DNA from: an uncultured Bacilli bacterium | GTDB taxonomy: Bacteria; Bacillota_I; Bacilli_A; RF39; UBA660 | Assembly: GCA_947589495.1 (NCBI GenBank) | Contig: CANQAK010000003.1 | Location: forward strand, 218-64,217 | Length of the DNA stretch: 64,000 nucleotides | Reading direction: 5' to 3' | In this document: piece by piece, positions 22,732 to 47,208 of the stretch | Layout: every line of letters begins with the position of its first letter | How positions within the stretch are numbered: position 1 is the first letter of the stretch | Notes under the pieces: model-generated | Told to the model about the DNA's origin: nothing | Databases searched by the model: none | Seen by the model: only the letters and a program-made list of their open reading frames with translations | Translations under genes and position numbers: made by a program

Positions 22732-22959
22732 TTAATATGGTCTTGGATAAGTTGGATAATAGTAACTATAACTATAATTACCATAAGGCATATTTGGATT
22801 AAATCCTCCACCAGTTGGAGCAACATTATAAATTGGTCGAGGTCTTGTTAGTCCAACTGCAGCACCTCCAACTAAAGCTCCACCTAAAAATGGTAATAAA
22901 AAGTATCTATCATTGTTATAAAAAGTATTTGGTCTATACATATTAGGGTAATATTTCAT
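22732..22959 (-). CDS. Small Y/P/G-rich protein with a central glycine-zipper hydrophobic segment
   Basis: 75-aa ORF with low-complexity Tyr/Pro/Asn ends around LLPFLGGALVGGAAVGL. Confidence 0.4.
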   Translation of the reverse strand: MKYYPNMYRPNTFYNNDRYFLLPFLGGALVGGAAVGLTRPRPIYNVAPTGGGFNPNMPYGNYSYSYYYPTYPRPY

Positions 22960-37794: not shown

Positions 37795-38950
37795 TAGGAA
37801 TTTCCTCCTCAACCACTTTTAATTTTCCGATATTTTCTTTTGTAACTATAAATATCTCTAAATATATTGTACTATCATTTGCTTCATTTTTCAAAACTTT
37901 TTTTAATAATATCTTTTCATCTTTATCCAAAGTTAATTTTACTTTTTCTTCTGCTAATTTAACTCCTTTAGTATAAGCCTCAGTTTCTGTTAATTCTCTA
38001 GTCTTTTCTATATACTCTTTTTCTTTAACTAAATTGATTTCAAAATCATTTAATTTATATAAATTAATTTCTTCTTCTTTACTTTTATCTATTCTACTTT
38101 TAAAAATTTTATATTTATTTTCATTAAATACAACATTTAAATTATAACGATTTTTACCAGTATAATAAGTATAAGTTTCATTAAGTGGTACTGTAACACT
38201 TACTTTATACCAAACATCACCATATACTTCTCCACTTGCACATACTGTATTTTTAACTTCTTCATTATATAAAATATCTCCCGATAAAATAACTTCTCCT
38301 TTTAAAACATAATCATTTATTTCTTTTAAGGCTACGCCTCTATAAATATTTAAACTTGATATTTTAGCATCTGTACTTGCTACTATATCACAATGAGCAT
38401 ACTCTAATTCATTTTTAGTTGGAGTCTTTTCAGTAACATTAACAATCATTATTAATCCATCATATTTTATTTCTAACCATTCTAAAGTATCTTTATTATT
38501 ATCTAAAATTTTATTAACTATAACTTCAATTTGTTTATGACTTTTTTTTAAACTTAGAGTCTTTAAACCATTTTCTTTTAACTGTTCTAAAATTAAATTT
38601 CTAATATTTTTATTAGCGCTTTTAACTTCTATTTTAAAAATAATATTATTGGCTAAAAATAAAATAAAAATACTTAAAATAATACCTATAGTAAAAACTT
38701 GATATTTTTTTAATATATTTTTTAATTTATCTAAACCTGTTTCATCATAAATAGTAGTATTATAACTAACTAAATATTTTTTTATTTTTTTATAATCAGA
38801 ATATTTTGTTTTAATTAAGATATAATCTTTTTCTTTTTTATTATCATATAAAGTTATACCAATATCATTTAATTTAACCAAAATATTATAATAACTACTA
38901 CTATTAATTTTTAACCATACTATTTTTTCTTTATTCATATTTAAACTCAA
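37760..38950 (-). CDS. yqfD: Sporulation protein YqfD
   Basis: 396 aa with a single TM near residue 90. Position after yqfC and upstream of the ybeY-dgkA-era block matches the Bacillus yqfCD locus. Confidence 0.65.
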   Translation of the reverse strand: MSLNMNKEKIVWLKINSSSYYNILVKLNDIGITLYDNKKEKDYILIKTKYSDYKKIKKYLVSYNTTIYDETGLDKLKNILKKYQVFTIGIILSIFILFLANNIIFKIEVKSANKNIRNLILEQLKENGLKTLSLKKSHKQIEVIVNKILDNNKDTLEWLEIKYDGLIMIVNVTEKTPTKNELEYAHCDIVASTDAKISSLNIYRGVALKEINDYVLKGEVILSGDILYNEEVKNTVCASGEVYGDVWYKVSVTVPLNETYTYYTGKNRYNLNVVFNENKYKIFKSRIDKSKEEEINLYKLNDFEINLVKEKEYIEKTRELTETEAYTKGVKLAEEKVKLTLDKDEKILLKKVLKNEANDSTIYLEIFIVTKENIGKLKVVEEEIPNGVESNNESVQ

Positions 38951-39185
38951 CTTTCATTATTTTTCCATTGATAAGAAGTTCTTGTTTAGTCATTTGTTTA
39001 ATTTTTAAATTAATTCCATCAATTGTAACTATAAATTTTTCCATAGTTAAAATAATTTCTGTATCACTTAATTTATTTAATTTTAGATAATTAAAAACAT
39101 GTAAAGAATTATCATATATAGTTATGAAATCTTCTAAATCATATAAATAGTTTTTAAAAAAATCTCTAAAATGTAAATTTTTCAT
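38931..39185 (-). CDS. yqfC: Sporulation protein YqfC
   Basis: 84 aa, overlapping the start of yqfD. Assigned from size and context. Confidence 0.6.
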   Translation of the reverse strand: MKNLHFRDFFKNYLYDLEDFITIYDNSLHVFNYLKLNKLSDTEIILTMEKFIVTIDGINLKIKQMTKQELLINGKIMKVEFKYE

Positions 39186-39247
39186 CTCTATATTATATTT
39201 TTACGTATATAAAAAAAGACTATTTAGTTAGTCTTAATTATTAAATA

Positions 39248-39934
39248 CTACAAACTTATATAACATTTTTCTTTAATAAATTTCTTTATTTCTTTTTCAT
39301 CTTTTCCTTCATAATATAAAATAAGTAATTTTTTAAATTGTTCAGTTAATTCTGCTGGTATTACTATTATTCCTTTTCCTTTAGAAATTAAATAATGATT
39401 ACAATAAATTACTGATGTCCTTTTATTACCATCAATAAATATTTGACTTTTCATCGTATATAATAATAAATTTATAGCCTTATCAACAATACTTATTTTT
39501 TTAGAAAAGATATTTTGTAATTCTTCTTTTATAACGGTTTCAATTGGTAATTTTGGTTCCCAACTAGTTCCTCCAATTTTAACTGGAACATTTCTAATTT
39601 TTCCCGCTGAATAGTAAAAACCTTCTTCCACTATTTTATTTATTTCACATAACAAAGCAAAATTAGTTTTAGATAAAATTACATTTTCATTTAATATAAA
39701 TTCCCAAGCATGCTTTAAATTTACTATTTTTAAATTATCTTCAGATGTCATATTACTAACTTTTCTACCTTCAATAATATTTTTAACATCTATAAACGTA
39801 GTCACTACACCTTCTAAAATTGCTTGTTTATAAATAGTTTGAGCTAAATACTTTTTGGCAAAATCTATACTTTGTTTTACTTTTTCGGAAAGTTCACTTT
39901 CTTTATAATCTATTATTTTAATTTTTTCATTCAT
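39248..39934 (-). CDS. Fic/Doc family protein with a non-canonical active-site motif
   Basis: Reads QIFIDGNKRTS where Fic/Doc proteins have HxFx(D/N)(G/A)N(G/K)R. The catalytic His position is Gln. Confidence 0.6.
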   Translation of the reverse strand: MNEKIKIIDYKESELSEKVKQSIDFAKKYLAQTIYKQAILEGVVTTFIDVKNIIEGRKVSNMTSEDNLKIVNLKHAWEFILNENVILSKTNFALLCEINKIVEEGFYYSAGKIRNVPVKIGGTSWEPKLPIETVIKEELQNIFSKKISIVDKAINLLLYTMKSQIFIDGNKRTSVIYCNHYLISKGKGIIVIPAELTEQFKKLLILYYEGKDEKEIKKFIKEKCYISL

Positions 39935-40705: not shown

Positions 40706-40734
40706 ATTATAACACTTAAACAATTATTTGACAA
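40706..40734 (-). promoter_or_regulatory. Sigma-A-type promoter for rpsU
   Basis: The minus strand reads TTGTCA-N17-TATAAT, about 30 nt upstream of the rpsU RBS GGGAGGG. Confidence 0.55.
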
Positions 40735-40795
40735 CAATAAAGCCAATAGTTTGTAAAAATATTTGTAAATAGTCTTATCATTGACAATATAATTA

Positions 40796-40945
40796 TTAAC
40801 AGTATTTTTGTTTGACAACTCTTCTAATTAAAGTACCTAAAGTTCTTCCCATTTCAAAGACTTTGTCAATAGCAGATAAAACTGCTGTAATTACAGCTCC
40901 AGAAACTCCACCTTTTATTTCTAGTAATTCTTCATCTCTTAACAC
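40796..40945 (-). CDS. Double-glycine-leader bacteriocin-like peptide B (not in the ORF track)
   Basis: Hand-translated, GTG start 7 nt after AAGGAGG. Leader and mature peptide: MLRDEELLEIKGG / VSGAVITAVLSAIDKVFEMGRTLGTLIRRVVKQKYC. Confidence 0.7.
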   Translation of the reverse strand: MLRDEELLEIKGGVSGAVITAVLSAIDKVFEMGRTLGTLIRRVVKQKYC

Positions 40946-40957
40946 AATTACACCTCC

Positions 40958-41113
40958 TTATTTTCTGCAAGCATTTGGATGTAAATAACCATCCCACACT
41001 CCAATTGCGAATGAAATAAGCCCAGCAGCTATGCCAGTAATTAATCCAGCTAAACCAATGCTGATAGCTCCTCCTTTAACTTGTAACATTTCTTCACTAT
41101 TTAAATTTTTCAT
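40958..41113 (-). CDS. Double-glycine-leader bacteriocin-like peptide A (not in the ORF track)
   Basis: Hand-translated, ATG start after GAGGAGG. Leader and mature peptide: MKNLNSEEMLQVKGG / AISIGLAGLITGIAAGLISFAIGVWDGYLHPNACRK. Confidence 0.75.
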   Translation of the reverse strand: MKNLNSEEMLQVKGGAISIGLAGLITGIAAGLISFAIGVWDGYLHPNACRK

Positions 41114-41126
41114 TATATTACCTCCT

Positions 41127-41537
41127 CTACTTAAATAATTCGAAAATATATTTTATCAATTTTTGTTTTCCATAATGAATAGTTACTATACCTACTTCAT
41201 TATCATACAAAACGTTATCAATTGTTAAATTTATTTGTTCATATATTCCATTTTCAATTAATTCATATTCCCCAAAACTATTAACTTTATAAGTTAATTT
41301 ATGCCCATTAAAAGTTAAATCATGATTATCTTTAATTATTTGTGATTGTTCACTACTAACTTTAACTATTAATAATCCATTATTATAAATACCGTAACAT
41401 TCTAATTTTTTATATACAGTAACTTTAAAACTTATAATAATTAAAATTACGAAAACAACACATAATAATAAGATTATTCTATGAAATTTAATTTGAGAGA
41501 GTTTTTTTAAACTATCATAGTTAATTTGAAAATTCAT
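41127..41537 (-). CDS. Small single-TM protein co-transcribed with the exporter (miniature HlyD/ComB-like accessory, or an immunity protein)
   Basis: 136 aa with an N-terminal TM (IILLLCVVFVILIIISF) and a beta-rich C-terminus. Its start overlaps the 3' end of the ABC gene. Confidence 0.45.
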   Translation of the reverse strand: MNFQINYDSLKKLSQIKFHRIILLLCVVFVILIIISFKVTVYKKLECYGIYNNGLLIVKVSSEQSQIIKDNHDLTFNGHKLTYKVNSFGEYELIENGIYEQINLTIDNVLYDNEVGIVTIHYGKQKLIKYIFELFK

Positions 41538-43581
41538 GATTACATCTTCCTAATTCAATAATATTTTGAAAATTTTTAGTTTGGTTTTTATGAGAAATAT
41601 AAATAATTGTTTTATCATGAAAATATTCTTTAATATTTTTAATAATAATACTTTCTAAAGTTTTATCAACTTCACTTAAAGCTTCATCTAAAATAATAAT
41701 ATTAGCATTCTTAATAAGGCCTCTAGCTAAAATAATTCTTTGTTTTTCACCACCTGAAATATTTTTAGAATTAGCTTCAATCAAAGAATTATATCTAAGA
41801 GGTTTTTTAGAAACTATTTTTTCTAATTCACATATTTTACATACGTTATTTAAATATTCTTCTGAAACTTTTCGACCAACTAAAATATTTTCTAAAATAG
41901 TTCCTGTAAAAAGTTCTTCATTTTGTGAAACATATAAAATATTTTCTCTTATAGTTTTCATATTAATATCTTTAATATTTTTACCGTCCAGATAAATATC
42001 TCCTAAAAAATTTAGATTTTCTTTATAAAGAAGTTTACAAATAGTACTTTTACCAGAACCAGATAAACCATTTAATAAAGCATGAGTTCCCTTACTTATT
42101 TTAAAATTCAAATTTTTTAAAATATAATCATAATTATTATAAGAATAACTCACATTTTTAAAAGTAATTTCTCCATCTAACTCTATATAATCTTCTTCTA
42201 ATTTTTCTTCTTCAATATTAATAAACTCTGTAATTTTAGTATAAGTAGCTTTTATGTAATTATATTTAGGTAATAAGTTAATTATATTTTTCACAGGTTC
42301 TACAAAATAGCTAAGAATGATATTAAATGTAAATAAATTAACAACATTTAAATCTCCTTTTAAAATATACCAAAGTCCAAATGAATTTATTAAGAAAAAG
42401 CAACTTTCTAAAAGAAAATCTTTTCCTAAATTAGTTATGTTAAAAAAACTATTAAATTGGTAATTATTAAATAGAAACTTAGATAAATATTTTTCAATCT
42501 TGTCTAATATTATTTTACCAATATTTAAATTTTTAATGCTTTCTAGCATTGTAATATTTTCAACTAAAATTGAATTAAAATCAGTTTGATAATTTATATT
42601 TTCTAAAACTTTTTTATACAATATTTTGCTTATTATAAAGCCATAAATTGCATAAATAGCTATAAATATAAATAATATCAAAAATAATTTACTATTAATA
42701 ACAAATAAAATAACTATTGATATTAGCATCATTAAAGTATCTAAAAAACCTGATACAAATATATCTGAAAATAAACTTTTAATATTTGCAAGTTCATCAA
42801 CTCTCGTTATAATTTCTCCAGTTGTTCTACTCTTGATGCTTTTTAAAGGAAGAGAAAATATATGTTTTAAAAATTCCGGATATAAGTAAACATCAACTAT
42901 ATTACTTAAATGATTTTCATAATATGTTCTTATATAGTACATAAATATTTTACTTAATGTAAATATTCCAAAAATGATTACTAAATACTTAAATATATGA
43001 CTATTAAAAGTTAGAAAACCACTACCAATTTTTAAATAGTAACTTCCTATAATAGATAAAATTGTCCATATAAGACTAGTTATAATTATTTTAACAATGA
43101 GAAACTTTTCCTTCTTTATAATATTTAAAAATAATTTACTAATGGATAGTTCTTTATTCATTTTAATAATATTACTTCTTGGATAAGCCAAAATAATATT
43201 ACCACTAAAAACTTCATTAAATTCTGTTAAAGTCATTTTTTTATTTCCAATACCTGGATCCATTAAATATACAGTATCTTTATAAACATTTTTGACTACA
43301 ACAAAATGTTCAAATCCATTTTTAAGTCTTAAATGAGCTATAAAAGGAAATTTTAAATTCTTACTTTGGATGTCATGCTCCAAAACCCCTGATGAATCAA
43401 ATCCCCATTTTTTAAAAGCCGAAACAATATGATAAGCATTAGTTCCATTTATATTAGTATAAGTATCATCTCTTAATTTTTCTAAAGAGATATACCCATC
43501 ATAATAAATAAACAGCCACTGCATACAGCACACTCCACAATCTTTAAAATCATTTTGAAGAACTGGTTTTATATTCTTCAT
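41521..43581 (-). CDS. Bacteriocin-processing ABC transporter with an N-terminal C39 peptidase domain
   Basis: C39 motifs QNDFKDCGVCC and HFVVVKNV...YLMDPG, six TM segments, Walker A GLSGSGKST, signature ISGGEKQR and Walker B IIILDEALS. Confidence 0.9.
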   Translation of the reverse strand: MKNIKPVLQNDFKDCGVCCMQWLFIYYDGYISLEKLRDDTYTNINGTNAYHIVSAFKKWGFDSSGVLEHDIQSKNLKFPFIAHLRLKNGFEHFVVVKNVYKDTVYLMDPGIGNKKMTLTEFNEVFSGNIILAYPRSNIIKMNKELSISKLFLNIIKKEKFLIVKIIITSLIWTILSIIGSYYLKIGSGFLTFNSHIFKYLVIIFGIFTLSKIFMYYIRTYYENHLSNIVDVYLYPEFLKHIFSLPLKSIKSRTTGEIITRVDELANIKSLFSDIFVSGFLDTLMMLISIVILFVINSKLFLILFIFIAIYAIYGFIISKILYKKVLENINYQTDFNSILVENITMLESIKNLNIGKIILDKIEKYLSKFLFNNYQFNSFFNITNLGKDFLLESCFFLINSFGLWYILKGDLNVVNLFTFNIILSYFVEPVKNIINLLPKYNYIKATYTKITEFINIEEEKLEEDYIELDGEITFKNVSYSYNNYDYILKNLNFKISKGTHALLNGLSGSGKSTICKLLYKENLNFLGDIYLDGKNIKDINMKTIRENILYVSQNEELFTGTILENILVGRKVSEEYLNNVCKICELEKIVSKKPLRYNSLIEANSKNISGGEKQRIILARGLIKNANIIILDEALSEVDKTLESIIIKNIKEYFHDKTIIYISHKNQTKNFQNIIELGRCNHEFSN

Positions 43582-43709
43582 ATTTTCCTCCCTTCATAAC
43601 TAATATTACCCATCATAATTTAGATTTCCTTTTTTTTAAAAAAATTTTTTTAAAATTGTTATTTTTTTTAGTTAATTTCATAATATTTAATAGCAATAGG
43701 AGAGATTAT

Positions 43710-44333: not shown

Positions 44334-45209
44334 CTACTTCTTCTTTTTTATAGTTCCAGTTTTTAACAAATTATTTTCATCTTGTTGACTATTTAAAGCT
44401 ATGCCTATTGTAAATATATATGATAAGTAATAAAACCAGATCATTAATACTACAATACTTGCTAAGCTACCATATAATGTACTATATTCAGCATAATTTG
44501 TTACATATATAGAATAAATTTTAGTTCCAAGAATCCAACAAACGGTTGTAAATATAGCTCCATAATTAATTACTCTTCCCTTTACTTTTTTATTAGGAGC
44601 TATTGCATAGATAACTCTAATAATGATAAACATAATTACCCAAGAAGCTGGACCCTTAATTAGTTCTAATATTGCTACTATATTTTTGGAAATTAATTCT
44701 TTAAAATGAACTTCTTTAATAAGGGTAATAATAGTATTACCAAATACAGGAACAATTAACATAAATATTAAAAGTAACACTATCAAGAAAGTAAGTCCAA
44801 AGGCTTTAATTCTTCTTTTAATCCAAGATTTGTTTTCAATTCCATAAATAGTATTACTAGCAGTAATAATTGAATCAGCACCATTACTAGCAACATAAAA
44901 TCCAATTAATAATGTTACAAAGAATTGAAAACCAACTTTATTTACTAAAGATGTACCTAATACCATTTGAGCAAGTTCATCAGAAAAAGAATGAGCTACA
45001 AAATCATAAAGAAAATCAACTGATAAATTTAATAAAGATGCTAGGTATGTAATTAAACTGATTAAAGGGATTACTGCTAAAACAAAAAAGAAAGAAAGAT
45101 TACCAGGAAGAACTATCATATCTGGTCTTCTTAAGACTTTAAAAAGATTTTTAAAAAATTCTTTAGCTCCTCCTTTTACTTTTTCTATTCTACCCTTCAT
45201 TATTTTCAC
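44334..45209 (-). CDS. YihY/BrkB family membrane protein
   Basis: 291 aa with six TM segments and the family's typical LSFFFVLAVIP...YG.LASIVVLMIWFY pattern. Confidence 0.75.
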   Translation of the reverse strand: MKIMKGRIEKVKGGAKEFFKNLFKVLRRPDMIVLPGNLSFFFVLAVIPLISLITYLASLLNLSVDFLYDFVAHSFSDELAQMVLGTSLVNKVGFQFFVTLLIGFYVASNGADSIITASNTIYGIENKSWIKRRIKAFGLTFLIVLLLIFMLIVPVFGNTIITLIKEVHFKELISKNIVAILELIKGPASWVIMFIIIRVIYAIAPNKKVKGRVINYGAIFTTVCWILGTKIYSIYVTNYAEYSTLYGSLASIVVLMIWFYYLSYIFTIGIALNSQQDENNLLKTGTIKKKK

Positions 45210-47208
45210 TCGCTTTTTTCTCTAACATATCATTAGTGGCTTCATTTATTGCATCTTCAATAGTTTTTAAATTACTATCTATTATACTATAACCAAATTC
45301 AGCCCCATAGTTATAAGGTAATTTTTTTAATTCTTTATTTAACTTATGAATATAATTAATTATTTGTTTTTGGTTATAACCTATTGTATAAATAATAAAT
45401 TCATTACCATCACTTCTTATTAAATCACTATTATCAAGTTGAGTTTTAATAAGAGCATTCGCTGCTGCTTGAATTTGTTTATCTCCCTCACCAACACCAT
45501 ATTGATTATTTATTTCTTTTAATCTATTTAAATCAACAACAATTATAGTTTGAGGATATATTGTATTATTACTCCAAGATTTCATAAAATCACTTAAATA
45601 AGCTCTATTTTTTAAACATGTAAGTTCATCAATAAATCTTATTTTTTCATCTTTTTTAAGTCTTCTTGCTATTCTTATCTTTTTACTATTTTTATAAACA
45701 ACTACTCCAATTACTAATATAGCTACAATACTAATTATAAAATATTTAGCTATATTATTTAAAATATTACCACTCATAATTGTTTCTAAATGACTATTAA
45801 TACCATCATTAATAGTTTTATTACTATCTAAATAATTTATATATTTATTAAGAAGTAAATATAAAGTACTATATTTTTCATTTATTTTAAAAGTATATTT
45901 ACTATTTATAAATGAATTATATTTACTAATATAGTGATTTAATTTACTATTTTGATAATAATTAAATATGTAAGTATCCATTACAATAATAACGTCTTTA
46001 TTATTTAACTTAAATAATTCTTTAGAACTATTATAAGTATTAATTTTAATATCAGGGATACTTTCTAAATATCTATATAAATTACTATTTGCTTCAACAT
46101 ATACTTCTTCACCTTGTAATCCATATATGGAATTAAATACTTTATTATTATCTTTATTAGTTAAAATAGATATACTACTATTTATACCATTTTCTGTACT
46201 TTTATAATCAGATGATATATTATCATTAAAATCAAAATATAAATCAACTTTTCCTTTGTTAATAGCACTAGCTAATTTGTTATTATTTTTATACTTAGTT
46301 ATATCAAAATATACTCCTGAAAATTTACTAAATTCTTGTAAATATTCAGAAATAATTCCTCCATAATTACCACTCATAATGACTTCATATGGAGAATTAT
46401 TTATAAATCCATAGTTATAATTAATACTTAATAAATCATCAACTGAGGCATCGCTTATATTTAAAGTATCTGTAAATATTTTAAACTCTTCTTCTTTAAT
46501 TTTAGCATTAATATTTTCTTCCCATTTAACAAAATATTTACTTAAAATACTACTTAATATATCATCTACCCCATTTAGAGTATATGAGATATTTATATCA
46601 CTAAAATGATAAACAATTTCTAAATTATTAGAAAGAATTTCTGTTAAATATTTCATTCTTGGAACAATTATATAACTATCATTATCTTCTAAACTTTTAA
46701 ATAATTCATCTTTATTATCGAAAGTATTATAAGTTATATTAACTTCTTTTAAATAACTTTTAATAAATTCTAAATCACTTTGTAAAACATTAACTTTAAT
46801 ACCTTCTAAATCAGAATTTACATTAAATATTTTATTTTCTTTACTTAATAAAACATAATGATCTTTATAAAATACATTATTATTTTCTGTAATATCTTTA
46901 GTATAATTTAAATTTATATAATTTGCTTCTGTATCTGGAAGAAATGTTATAACATTTATATTTATACCATATTCTTTAGAAAAATCATTCAAAAAATCAT
47001 AAAATACTCCATGACCATCTTTACTGAAAATATTTTCATCTTTAACAACATAAATATTTTGAACGTTGTTAATATTTCCATTTATCCATGTTCTTTCTTC
47101 ACTTGTAAGTTTATTTTCATCAGAAAGTATTTTATATGTAAATACTCCCCCGACTAAGAGGACAATTAAAACTATTATTATTGGTATTAACCATTTTTTC
47201 TTTTTCAT
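45190..47208 (-). CDS. Membrane protein with a large extracytoplasmic domain and a degenerate GGDEF domain
   Basis: N-terminal TM, ~480-aa external region, second TM, then DELTCLKNRAY...VVDLNRLKEIN...RSDGNEF (canonical RxGGDEF). Confidence 0.7.
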   Translation of the reverse strand: MKKKKWLIPIIIVLIVLLVGGVFTYKILSDENKLTSEERTWINGNINNVQNIYVVKDENIFSKDGHGVFYDFLNDFSKEYGININVITFLPDTEANYINLNYTKDITENNNVFYKDHYVLLSKENKIFNVNSDLEGIKVNVLQSDLEFIKSYLKEVNITYNTFDNKDELFKSLEDNDSYIIVPRMKYLTEILSNNLEIVYHFSDINISYTLNGVDDILSSILSKYFVKWEENINAKIKEEEFKIFTDTLNISDASVDDLLSINYNYGFINNSPYEVIMSGNYGGIISEYLQEFSKFSGVYFDITKYKNNNKLASAINKGKVDLYFDFNDNISSDYKSTENGINSSISILTNKDNNKVFNSIYGLQGEEVYVEANSNLYRYLESIPDIKINTYNSSKELFKLNNKDVIIVMDTYIFNYYQNSKLNHYISKYNSFINSKYTFKINEKYSTLYLLLNKYINYLDSNKTINDGINSHLETIMSGNILNNIAKYFIISIVAILVIGVVVYKNSKKIRIARRLKKDEKIRFIDELTCLKNRAYLSDFMKSWSNNTIYPQTIIVVDLNRLKEINNQYGVGEGDKQIQAAANALIKTQLDNSDLIRSDGNEFIIYTIGYNQKQIINYIHKLNKELKKLPYNYGAEFGYSIIDSNLKTIEDAINEATNDMLEKKASENNEG

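Follow-up and report, generated by a model that had tools for sequence, protein, structure and literature searches.

A putative class IIb-type two-peptide bacteriocin operon with single-cysteine peptides and a candidate minimal exporter partner in uncultured Bacilli

Two-peptide bacteriocins such as lactococcin G and plantaricin EF/JK are helical pairs whose members pack against each other through GxxxG motifs. Their peptides have no Cys, as is the case for most class IIb peptides (PMC10100652). Gallocin A of Streptococcus gallolyticus, a system made of GllA1, GllA2, the immunity peptide GIP and the exporter BlpAB, was the first class IIb peptide reported with an intramolecular disulfide; its Cys residues are essential to activity, and GIP has been proposed to act as a mimic of the toxin peptides (PMC10100652). 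Here we describe a locus in a stretch of 64,000 nucleotides (hereafter the window) from an uncultured Bacilli bacterium of the RF39 lineage (contig CANQAK010000003.1, positions 218 to 64,217), where four tightly packed or overlapping genes on the minus strand, spanning 43581-40796, encode a peptidase-containing ABC transporter (PCAT), a 136-residue membrane protein and two double-glycine-leader peptides, A and B. The locus is probably an operon for a class IIb-type two-peptide bacteriocin, for which a mechanism is proposed below. It had been pointed out in an initial annotation made from the letters alone, whose four open reading frames (ORFs), coordinates, strand and translations all proved exact.

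The peptide A gene (40958-41113, minus strand) starts with ATG and encodes a precursor of 51 aa, with leader MKNLNSEEMLQVKGG (nt 41113-41069) and a mature part of 36 aa (nt 41068-40961; AISIGLAGLITGIAAGLISFAIGVWDGYLHPNACRK) that ends in GVWDGYLHPNACRK. The peptide B gene (40796-40945, minus strand) starts with GTG and encodes a precursor of 49 aa, with leader MLRDEELLEIKGG (nt 40945-40907) and a mature part, also of 36 aa (nt 40906-40799; VSGAVITAVLSAIDKVFEMGRTLGTLIRRVVKQKYC), that ends in GRTLGTLIRRVVKQKYC. Each is preceded by a strong ribosome binding site (RBS) of AGGAGG type: AGGAGG at 41126-41121, 7 nt before the start of A, and AAGGAGGTG at 40959-40951, 5 nt before the start of B. Both leaders match the double-glycine consensus, with hydrophobic residues at -4, -7 and -12 and Glu at -8, and a regular expression for such a leader combined with an RBS returned, over the whole window, peptides A and B plus one false positive. 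The latter (22732-22959, minus strand) is a Tyr/Pro/Gly-rich ORF of 75 aa with an RBS, not a double-glycine-leader peptide. Each mature peptide contains a GxxxG motif (GVWDG in A, GRTLG in B) and a single Cys within the last four residues. Peptide A is hydrophobic, with a grand average of hydropathy (GRAVY) of 0.98, and peptide B is amphipathic, with a hydrophobic moment of 0.73 and a net charge of +4. Their calculated average masses are about 3640.3 Da (A) and 3923.7 Da (B), and a disulfide-linked heterodimer would have about 7561.9 Da. The ribosome binding sites, real double-glycine leaders, mature lengths, single Cys and GxxxG motifs are all as initially claimed. For both peptide genes the ratio of nonsynonymous to synonymous substitution rates (dN/dS) is below 1, with dS saturated.

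Alignment-based searches returned, at E<=0.01, 321 relatives of peptide A and 276 of peptide B, in which both genes are conserved as ORFs. Where the hosts are named they are given as 'Bacilli bacterium', or in some sources 'Bacillota bacterium' or 'Firmicutes bacterium', uncultured and from gut and digester metagenomes. The description of the pair as unannotated holds for the first-stage ORF track only, both peptides being already called as proteins in public collections (P0189, P0291). The NCBIfam model TIGR03949 (class IIb, lactobin A/cerein 7B; cut-off 21.5) gives peptide A a score of 25.5 bits. This model was matched by all ten A-type peptides tested (best E=2.4e-7; the score listed is that of the window peptide only), and NCBI and JGI have automatically given some relatives of A the name 'class IIb bacteriocin, lactobin A/cerein 7B family'. 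With peptide B no named bacteriocin family reaches its curated threshold, and all matches stay below it: the lactococcin G-beta/enterocin 1071B model NF038034 (cut-off 37) assigns it 17.2 bits, and 12.7 bits to peptide A, and neither the lactococcin G-alpha nor the G-beta model comes near its cut-off with the peptides described here. The class IIb likeness noted in the initial annotation is supported by the family match of peptide A; peptide B is an unnamed partner family.

Conservation was counted over 120 relatives of each peptide. A single Cys in the mature peptide is found in 116 of the A relatives and in 116 of the B relatives, the Gly pair of GxxxG is invariant in both alignments (120/120 in each), and the spacing from GxxxG to the Cys is 6 residues in 119 of 120 for A and 11 residues in 120 of 120 for B. 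The tail of peptide A, G-x-x-D-G-x-x-x-P-x-x-C, shows almost no variation over more than 100 clusters; its family form is G-V-I-D-G-F-V-R-P-L-K-C, also given as GVIDGFVRPLKC, and the window peptide carries a divergent version of it, GVWDGYLHPNAC. The peptide B family is marked by LG(R/Q)xxGSAIRR followed by six residues and the Cys, and its members have a mean net charge of +4. Mature lengths range from 31 to about 40 aa among the relatives. No mention of these peptide motifs was found in the literature searched.

The exporter gene (41521-43581, minus strand) encodes 686 aa with a C39 peptidase domain at residues 5-136 (nt 43569-43174), a six-helix ABC membrane domain at 165-430 and an ATPase domain at 488-635. 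All three Pfam domains score far above their cut-offs (C39, PF03412, E=7.9e-31, 107.1 bits with a cut-off of 22; ABC_membrane, PF00664, E=1.1e-28, 101.1 bits; ABC_tran, PF00005, E=1.2e-25, 91.2 bits). The protein aligns over its full length with PCAT1 (4ry2, E=1.4e-94) and ComA (8hf4, E=1.1e-88), its catalytic triad falls on the PCAT1 motifs (Cys15 in DCG, His92 in HFVV and Asp108 in DPG), and its translation reads GSGKST for Walker A, SGGEKQR for the signature and ILDEA for Walker B. With 372.9 bits it lies below the cut-off of NCBIfam TIGR01193 (bacteriocin_ABC; 523.85 bits), and is therefore divergent at the subfamily level. Judged by its sequence, the exporter is a genuine and complete PCAT with intact Cys-His-Asp peptidase and ATPase motifs, as the C39-ABC assignment of the initial annotation had it, and cleavage of the leaders and export by this transporter are very likely.

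Exporter, peptide A and peptide B occur together in every locus with enough flanking sequence, about 49 distinct loci from rabbit, mouse and human gut, rumen and digesters. When metagenomes were scanned with the tail of peptide A, 121 loci were confirmed; their sources include human gut, rumen and digesters. Two of the module-bearing metagenome contigs are longer than 0.8 Mb: Ga0074193_1000001 (L077; 833,746 bp) and Ga0334900_1000001 (L112; 820,305 bp). Conservation of the small ORFs beside the same exporter had been named beforehand as a test of the proposal, and in every related locus examined both were kept. A shared genomic site recurs, in which a divergent spoIIIAH-like gene is followed by the module, rpsU, yqeY and then often yabP and yqfD. 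It is seen in the closest relatives, rabbit-gut metagenome-assembled genomes whose 136-aa protein is about 50% identical, and also in far more distant genomes with exporters 42-46% identical; among shared-site genomes rpsU is 60-89% identical. The best explanation is that the operon is chromosomal and largely vertically inherited. The module is also found at other sites: by rnc, by the glycyl-tRNA synthetase gene, and beside IS605-type or cell-wall hydrolase genes. Mobile elements interrupt it in some strains. At L024:5285-7000 a serine-recombinase element has its junction within the 3' end of the peptide A gene, and the flanking sequence shares 99.3% identity with L023, where the locus is intact. 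At L026:4541-6424, by comparison with L025, the junction of a Tn916-like integrase/excisionase element falls in the 3' part of the exporter gene. The other genomic sites and the disruption by mobile elements in some strains indicate that the module is dispensable.

In the mechanism that we propose, the C39 domain would cut each precursor after Gly-Gly and the transporter would export the two 36-aa products. Peptide A, as a hydrophobic membrane-spanning helix, and peptide B, as an amphipathic cationic helix, would then pair via GxxxG in the way of lactococcin G and the plantaricins. The one C-terminal Cys of A would be joined to that of B by a disulfide that locks the pair, and the pair would permeabilise the membranes of competitors. 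The 136-aa protein would be the remnant of a HlyD/ComB-type adaptor, keeping the cytoplasmic N-terminus, the transmembrane (TM) helix, the beta-barrel and the C-terminal helix; it would dock on the exporter and assist release, being helpful and not essential. Immunity in the window genome would be encoded outside the operon.

An antimicrobial function of the two peptides, suggested by their sequence features, is in our judgement the probable one. It has to be weighed against the idea that the pair is not antimicrobial and is instead a conserved, self-directed exported factor, either membrane-active or signalling, with a role in sporulation or the cell envelope, the likeness to bacteriocins reflecting a shared export route only. 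Several observations do speak for such a role. The module keeps the same core-genome site, from the spoIIIAH-like gene to rpsU-yqeY-yabP-yqfD, in genomes where the exporter is only 42-68% identical, and the near-invariant tail of peptide A spans more than 100 clusters, most bacteriocin families being more variable; a conserved housekeeping position across deeply diverged genomes combined with such a tail is unusual for bacteriocins and weighs against an antimicrobial function. Many loci are also without any immunity candidate in cis, no dedicated regulator gene is present among the ORFs of the operon, and PCATs are described as exporting pheromones and other double-glycine peptides too (PMC7018657). 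A self-directed factor would not be expected, on the other hand, to place peptide A above the curated threshold of a class IIb family, nor to combine a hydrophobic helix with a cationic amphipathic helix, each with GxxxG, which is the class IIb design. About 16 loci moreover encode a leaderless paralogue of peptide B (see below) that fits an immunity mimic best, comparable with the proposal for gallocin GIP, and the presence of the module elsewhere in genomes, as well as its disruption in some strains, shows it to be dispensable. We regard a non-antimicrobial role as unlikely.

The disulfide between A and B is a more tentative part of the proposed mechanism, one that we take seriously without calling it probable. 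As an idea of the initial annotation it has gained strength from the retention of one Cys in most relatives of each peptide and from its fixed spacing to GxxxG: a single Cys in each partner, in fixed register with GxxxG, is what an A-B cross-link predicts, though it is not proof of one. With a similar degree of reserve it may be supposed that the peptides act as a non-covalent pair and that the Cys is used otherwise, as a free thiol for receptor contact, in a homodimer, or in a transient mixed disulfide with the third peptide described below. All characterised class IIb systems are, as far as is known, non-covalent, and no precedent for an inter-peptide disulfide was found in the literature searched on class IIb disulfides. 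Two further points weigh against the cross-link, namely that the related loci come from anoxic habitats (guts and digesters) and that a motif scan of all window ORFs of at least 80 aa found no thioredoxin-type CxxC. The 136-aa protein family has no conserved Cys pair either, and the third peptide retains the same C-terminal Cys, so that this residue may matter beyond an A-B link. What a non-covalent pair leaves unaccounted for is that in either family 116 of 120 relatives keep one Cys, an odd number, and that this Cys is in all cases close to the C-terminus, with a set spacing to the helix-packing motif; gallocin A, in addition, shows that disulfides can be essential in a two-peptide bacteriocin of the gut, an anaerobic niche.

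The gene of the 136-aa single-pass membrane protein (41127-41537, minus strand) starts 17 nt before the end of the exporter gene, and a start overlapping the exporter stop was found in seven of seven loci measured (by 4-20 nt in the six besides the window). An exhaustive profile search yielded a family of 143 cluster representatives, whose full-length members have about 130-156 aa, apart from a few fragments and one repetitive outlier of 580 aa, and none of which comes near the approximately 450 aa of ComB/LcnD-type proteins. An AlphaFold2 model built from 132 sequences (pLDDT 89.9) predicts a short N-terminal helix, a TM helix at 18-38, a six-strand beta-barrel with one short helix at 40-126 and a C-terminal helix at 127-135. 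The positive-inside rule places the N-terminus inside in 89 members and outside in 10, leaving an ectodomain that is acidic across the family (mean net charge -1.7). Of the four genes it is the fastest-evolving, with 23-49% identity as compared with 35-68% for the exporter. Some homologues end in 'KGG' (L016:2530-2973; P0110, P0128, P0131, P0163), which was considered as a cleavage site and rejected, being the translated RBS (AAAGGAGG) of the overlapping peptide A gene.

Both ends of this protein show a nominal profile similarity to HlyD-type adaptors. A profile of six of these, comprising the PCAT-adjacent ones on Clostridium and Bacillus plasmids plus HlyD of Escherichia coli, was compared with the family by hhalign. 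The N-terminal 44 columns, which cover the cytoplasmic motif, the TM helix and the first strand, aligned with P=6e-4, and when the comparison was limited to the last 130 residues the C-terminal 78 columns aligned collinearly through the terminal helix with P=0.026 (score 18.1; highest shuffle score 15.5). In neither comparison did any of the 50 column shuffles or of the reversed controls score as high. Foldseek searches with the model returned recurrent weak matches to the beta-barrels of Spr0693, MacA, AcrA and CusB (TM-score 0.32-0.40 on the full query), plus the barrel of HerA. In the model there is neither a lipoyl (barrel-sandwich) domain nor a coiled-coil hairpin, only the six-strand barrel and two short helices.

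Other results count against this relationship. The hhalign probabilities are only 29% and 2%, and a comparison with a single HlyD sequence was uninformative (probability 1.8%). No Foldseek match reached E<=0.001, and neither the single protein nor the 132-member profile gave a Pfam, NCBIfam or PDB sequence match, with no NCBIfam match to the protein even at E<=1. When the 132 members were compared with Pfam at E<=0.1, no HlyD family was among the 25 most frequently matched. DUF4738 and BPA_C, which were considered as families for this protein, were discarded as below threshold and inconsistent across members. At least 11 distinct loci among the relatives (between a fifth and a quarter) also lack the gene altogether; there the exporter stop abuts the start of peptide A, and this absence implies that the protein is not essential to the system. 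Such loci include L081, L101, L102, L069 and L113, with the exporter stop -17 to +51 nt from the peptide A start; in L048 only a 44-aa N-terminal remnant of the protein is seen. On balance it is fairly probable that the 136-aa protein is a HlyD-derived exporter partner from which some 330 central residues, the lipoyl and hairpin domains, have been lost. The initial assignment as a miniature accessory protein is accordingly plausible, with nominal profile similarity at both HlyD ends and weak fold matches on its side, and without a match to a family model or a presence in all loci. Literature searched for small accessory proteins of PCATs contained nothing relevant.

The plasmid sequences most closely related to the exporter include Clostridium botulinum plasmid pRSJ13_1 (L027). 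Its annotation gives a PCAT and a Blp-family bacteriocin with no adaptor gene, and tblastn finds an unannotated HlyD-like N-terminal stretch just after the PCAT. Clostridium perfringens plasmid pCPCPLi6-1_4 (L028) carries a HlyD adaptor of 500 aa with a lantibiotic.

Concerning immunity, about 16 of the roughly 49 distinct loci contain a third small gene that overlaps the 3' end of the peptide B gene. Its product, 36-59 aa long, lacks a double-glycine leader; its N-terminus is basic, its membrane helix contains Pro, and its tail is peptide-B-like (F..G...GT.IR, then a C-terminal Cys), the match to the peptide B profile having E values of 1e-4 to 2e-6. Examples, all outside the window, are L018:6748-6912, L094:1696-1860, L112:6309-6488 and L044:1153-1317. 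By analogy with GIP, this third peptide is likely the immunity candidate of the system, a leaderless and membrane-anchored mimic of peptide B. The gene is absent from the window and its closest relatives. As had been observed at the outset, no obvious immunity gene is found in the window operon: the stretch from peptide B to rpsU contains no other ORF, and the third-peptide profile matched only peptide B in the 64-kb window (E=1.3e-4). An ORF of 66 aa overlapping the end of peptide B (40818-40618) was considered as a degenerate third peptide and dismissed as spurious; it spans the rpsU promoter and start, and has E=0.16 against the profile. At least 11 loci contain neither the 136-aa protein nor the third peptide, which is odd for a self-toxic bacteriocin and, together with the missing immunity gene of the window, argues against a bacteriocin. 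In several loci with neither extra gene, rpsU comes directly next.

The initial annotation had also raised the possibility that the 136-aa protein itself confers immunity, in which case its membrane-anchored, acidic ectodomain would bind the cationic peptides, much as LanI lipoproteins bind lantibiotics, and block their insertion. No other candidate exists in the window operon, the gene immediately precedes the structural genes, the ectodomain, predicted to lie on the outside, has a mean net charge of -1.7 whereas that of peptide B is +4, and quick evolution, as seen for this gene, is common among immunity genes. The loci of the relatives point elsewhere. In about 15 of them the protein occurs together with the third peptide, and it is not favoured as an immunity factor because of this co-occurrence with a better candidate; it is missing from at least 11 loci that keep both peptides, and its start always overlaps the exporter stop and never a peptide gene. 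The resemblance of both its ends to HlyD-type adaptors, and a list of top 50 fold matches that holds no NisI/SpaI-type structure, go in the same direction. The claim is weakened, and we consider an immunity role of the 136-aa protein quite improbable.

The surroundings of the operon are AT-rich, with a local G+C content of about 22%, and its neighbours include sporulation genes for YqfD, a YabP-like protein and a SpoIIIAH-like protein. A weak promoter-like site lies upstream of the exporter gene at 43612-43640 on the minus strand (TTTAAA, 17 nt, TATGAT; 9/12 consensus matches), within the short divergent spacer common to the exporter gene and the spoIIIAH-like gene; such sites are about as frequent in shuffled sequence as in the region. 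Outside the module, at its other boundary, a near-consensus promoter-like site for rpsU is found at 40706-40734 on the same strand (TTGTCA, 17 nt, TG-TATAAT; 11/12 matches plus an extended -10 TG). The statement that the locus abuts rpsU with no terminator was half right, as the 122-nt spacer between peptide B and rpsU shows no canonical terminator and does form a gap that holds the rpsU promoter-like site. Given that site, the position beside rpsU does not imply co-transcription. An imperfect AT-rich hairpin at 40741-40800 (minus strand), from the peptide B stop towards rpsU, overlaps the rpsU -35 box, and its fold is not significant (z=-1.66). TTGTCA is present three times in the spacer. Two terminator-like hits of the promoter/terminator scan fall inside the peptide genes and were set aside as chance. 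Beyond rpsU, a Fic/DOC-family gene (39248-39934, minus strand) lies between yqeY and the yabP-like gene, beside a stretch (38500-39500) where G+C falls to 15-17%; in L014 and L015 yqeY is directly followed by yabP-yqfD, which makes the Fic/DOC position a variable insertion spot. On the other side of the module, at 45190-47208 (minus strand), the translation reads as a membrane protein of 672 aa with a GGDEF-like C-terminal part in which SDGNEF replaces the GGDEF motif.

If the proposed function holds, the locus belongs to a large two-peptide bacteriocin-like family with hundreds of sequence clusters, for which no experimentally characterised member was found, and which is found only in uncultured low-GC Bacilli living in digesters, in the rumen and in the guts of animals and humans. 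Nothing in the system is categorically new; three of its features are directly testable. An inter-peptide disulfide, an immunity candidate derived from a toxin peptide, and a minimal part of a HlyD-type adaptor still useful without an outer membrane would, if true, depart from textbook class IIb systems. All of them combined would give the first disulfide-linked heterodimeric class II bacteriocin, with a third peptide that mimics B and captures A via the same Cys, and the smallest known exporter adaptor, a HlyD relative reduced to TM helix and barrel, in a lineage-wide core-genome system of uncultured, small-genome gut Bacilli including those of the human gut; that all of this is correct at once we find rather doubtful. 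Since the peptides are short and unmodified, chemical synthesis could quickly settle their activity and the role of the Cys. The core-genome position raises the question of competition versus a housekeeping role in reduced genomes.

Comparison with known systems places each component as follows. HlyD/ComB/LcnD-type adaptors are, like the 136-aa protein, encoded right after the exporter with a stop/start overlap, and share with it a cytoplasmic N-terminal motif, a single TM helix and a C-terminal beta-barrel ending in an amphipathic helix; the 136-aa protein differs in being some 330 residues shorter and dispensable in some loci, and its similarity to them is nominally significant only. PedC of the pediocin-like bacteriocins is another small, membrane-anchored and exporter-adjacent protein, of about 170 aa, which aids the maturation of a Cys-containing bacteriocin as a thioredoxin-fold oxidoreductase with a CxxC motif. 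That description sets it apart from the 136-aa protein, which is modelled as a beta-barrel, contains no CxxC, belongs to a family with a mean of 0.9 Cys per protein and no conserved Cys or Cys pair, and gave no thioredoxin match. PCAT1 of Clostridium thermocellum and ComA of Streptococcus show the same three-domain architecture over their full length as the window exporter, which is only about 30% identical to them; PCAT1 has, to our knowledge, no accessory partner, ComA is coupled to ComB, and the window exporter would be coupled to its 136-aa partner.

Among the bacteriocins, lactococcin G and plantaricin EF/JK resemble the window pair in having one more hydrophobic and one cationic peptide, with GxxxG here invariant in both. 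Unlike in the window, an immunity gene is part of their operons, and the accessory protein used by their exporters has 450 aa. Gallocin A is likewise a two-peptide system of the gut with double-glycine leaders. Its peptides, however, have 42 and 60 aa and two Cys each, which form an intramolecular bond in a helical hairpin, while the single Cys of each window peptide allows only an intermolecular one; the window also differs in having neither an immunity peptide, according to the profile search, nor a thioredoxin-like helper, according to the CxxC scan, and the analogue of GIP would be the leaderless peptide B paralogue of its relatives. The lactobin A/cerein 7B family (TIGR03949) shares with the locus a double-glycine leader, a Gly-rich hydrophobic mature peptide with GxxxG, and an adjacent partner peptide and PCAT. 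Compared with that family, the partner here, peptide B, belongs to no family named above threshold, the hosts are uncultured low-GC Bacilli rather than lactobacilli or Bacillus cereus, and the D-G-x-x-x-P-x-x-C tail with its single invariant Cys is specific to the peptide A group.

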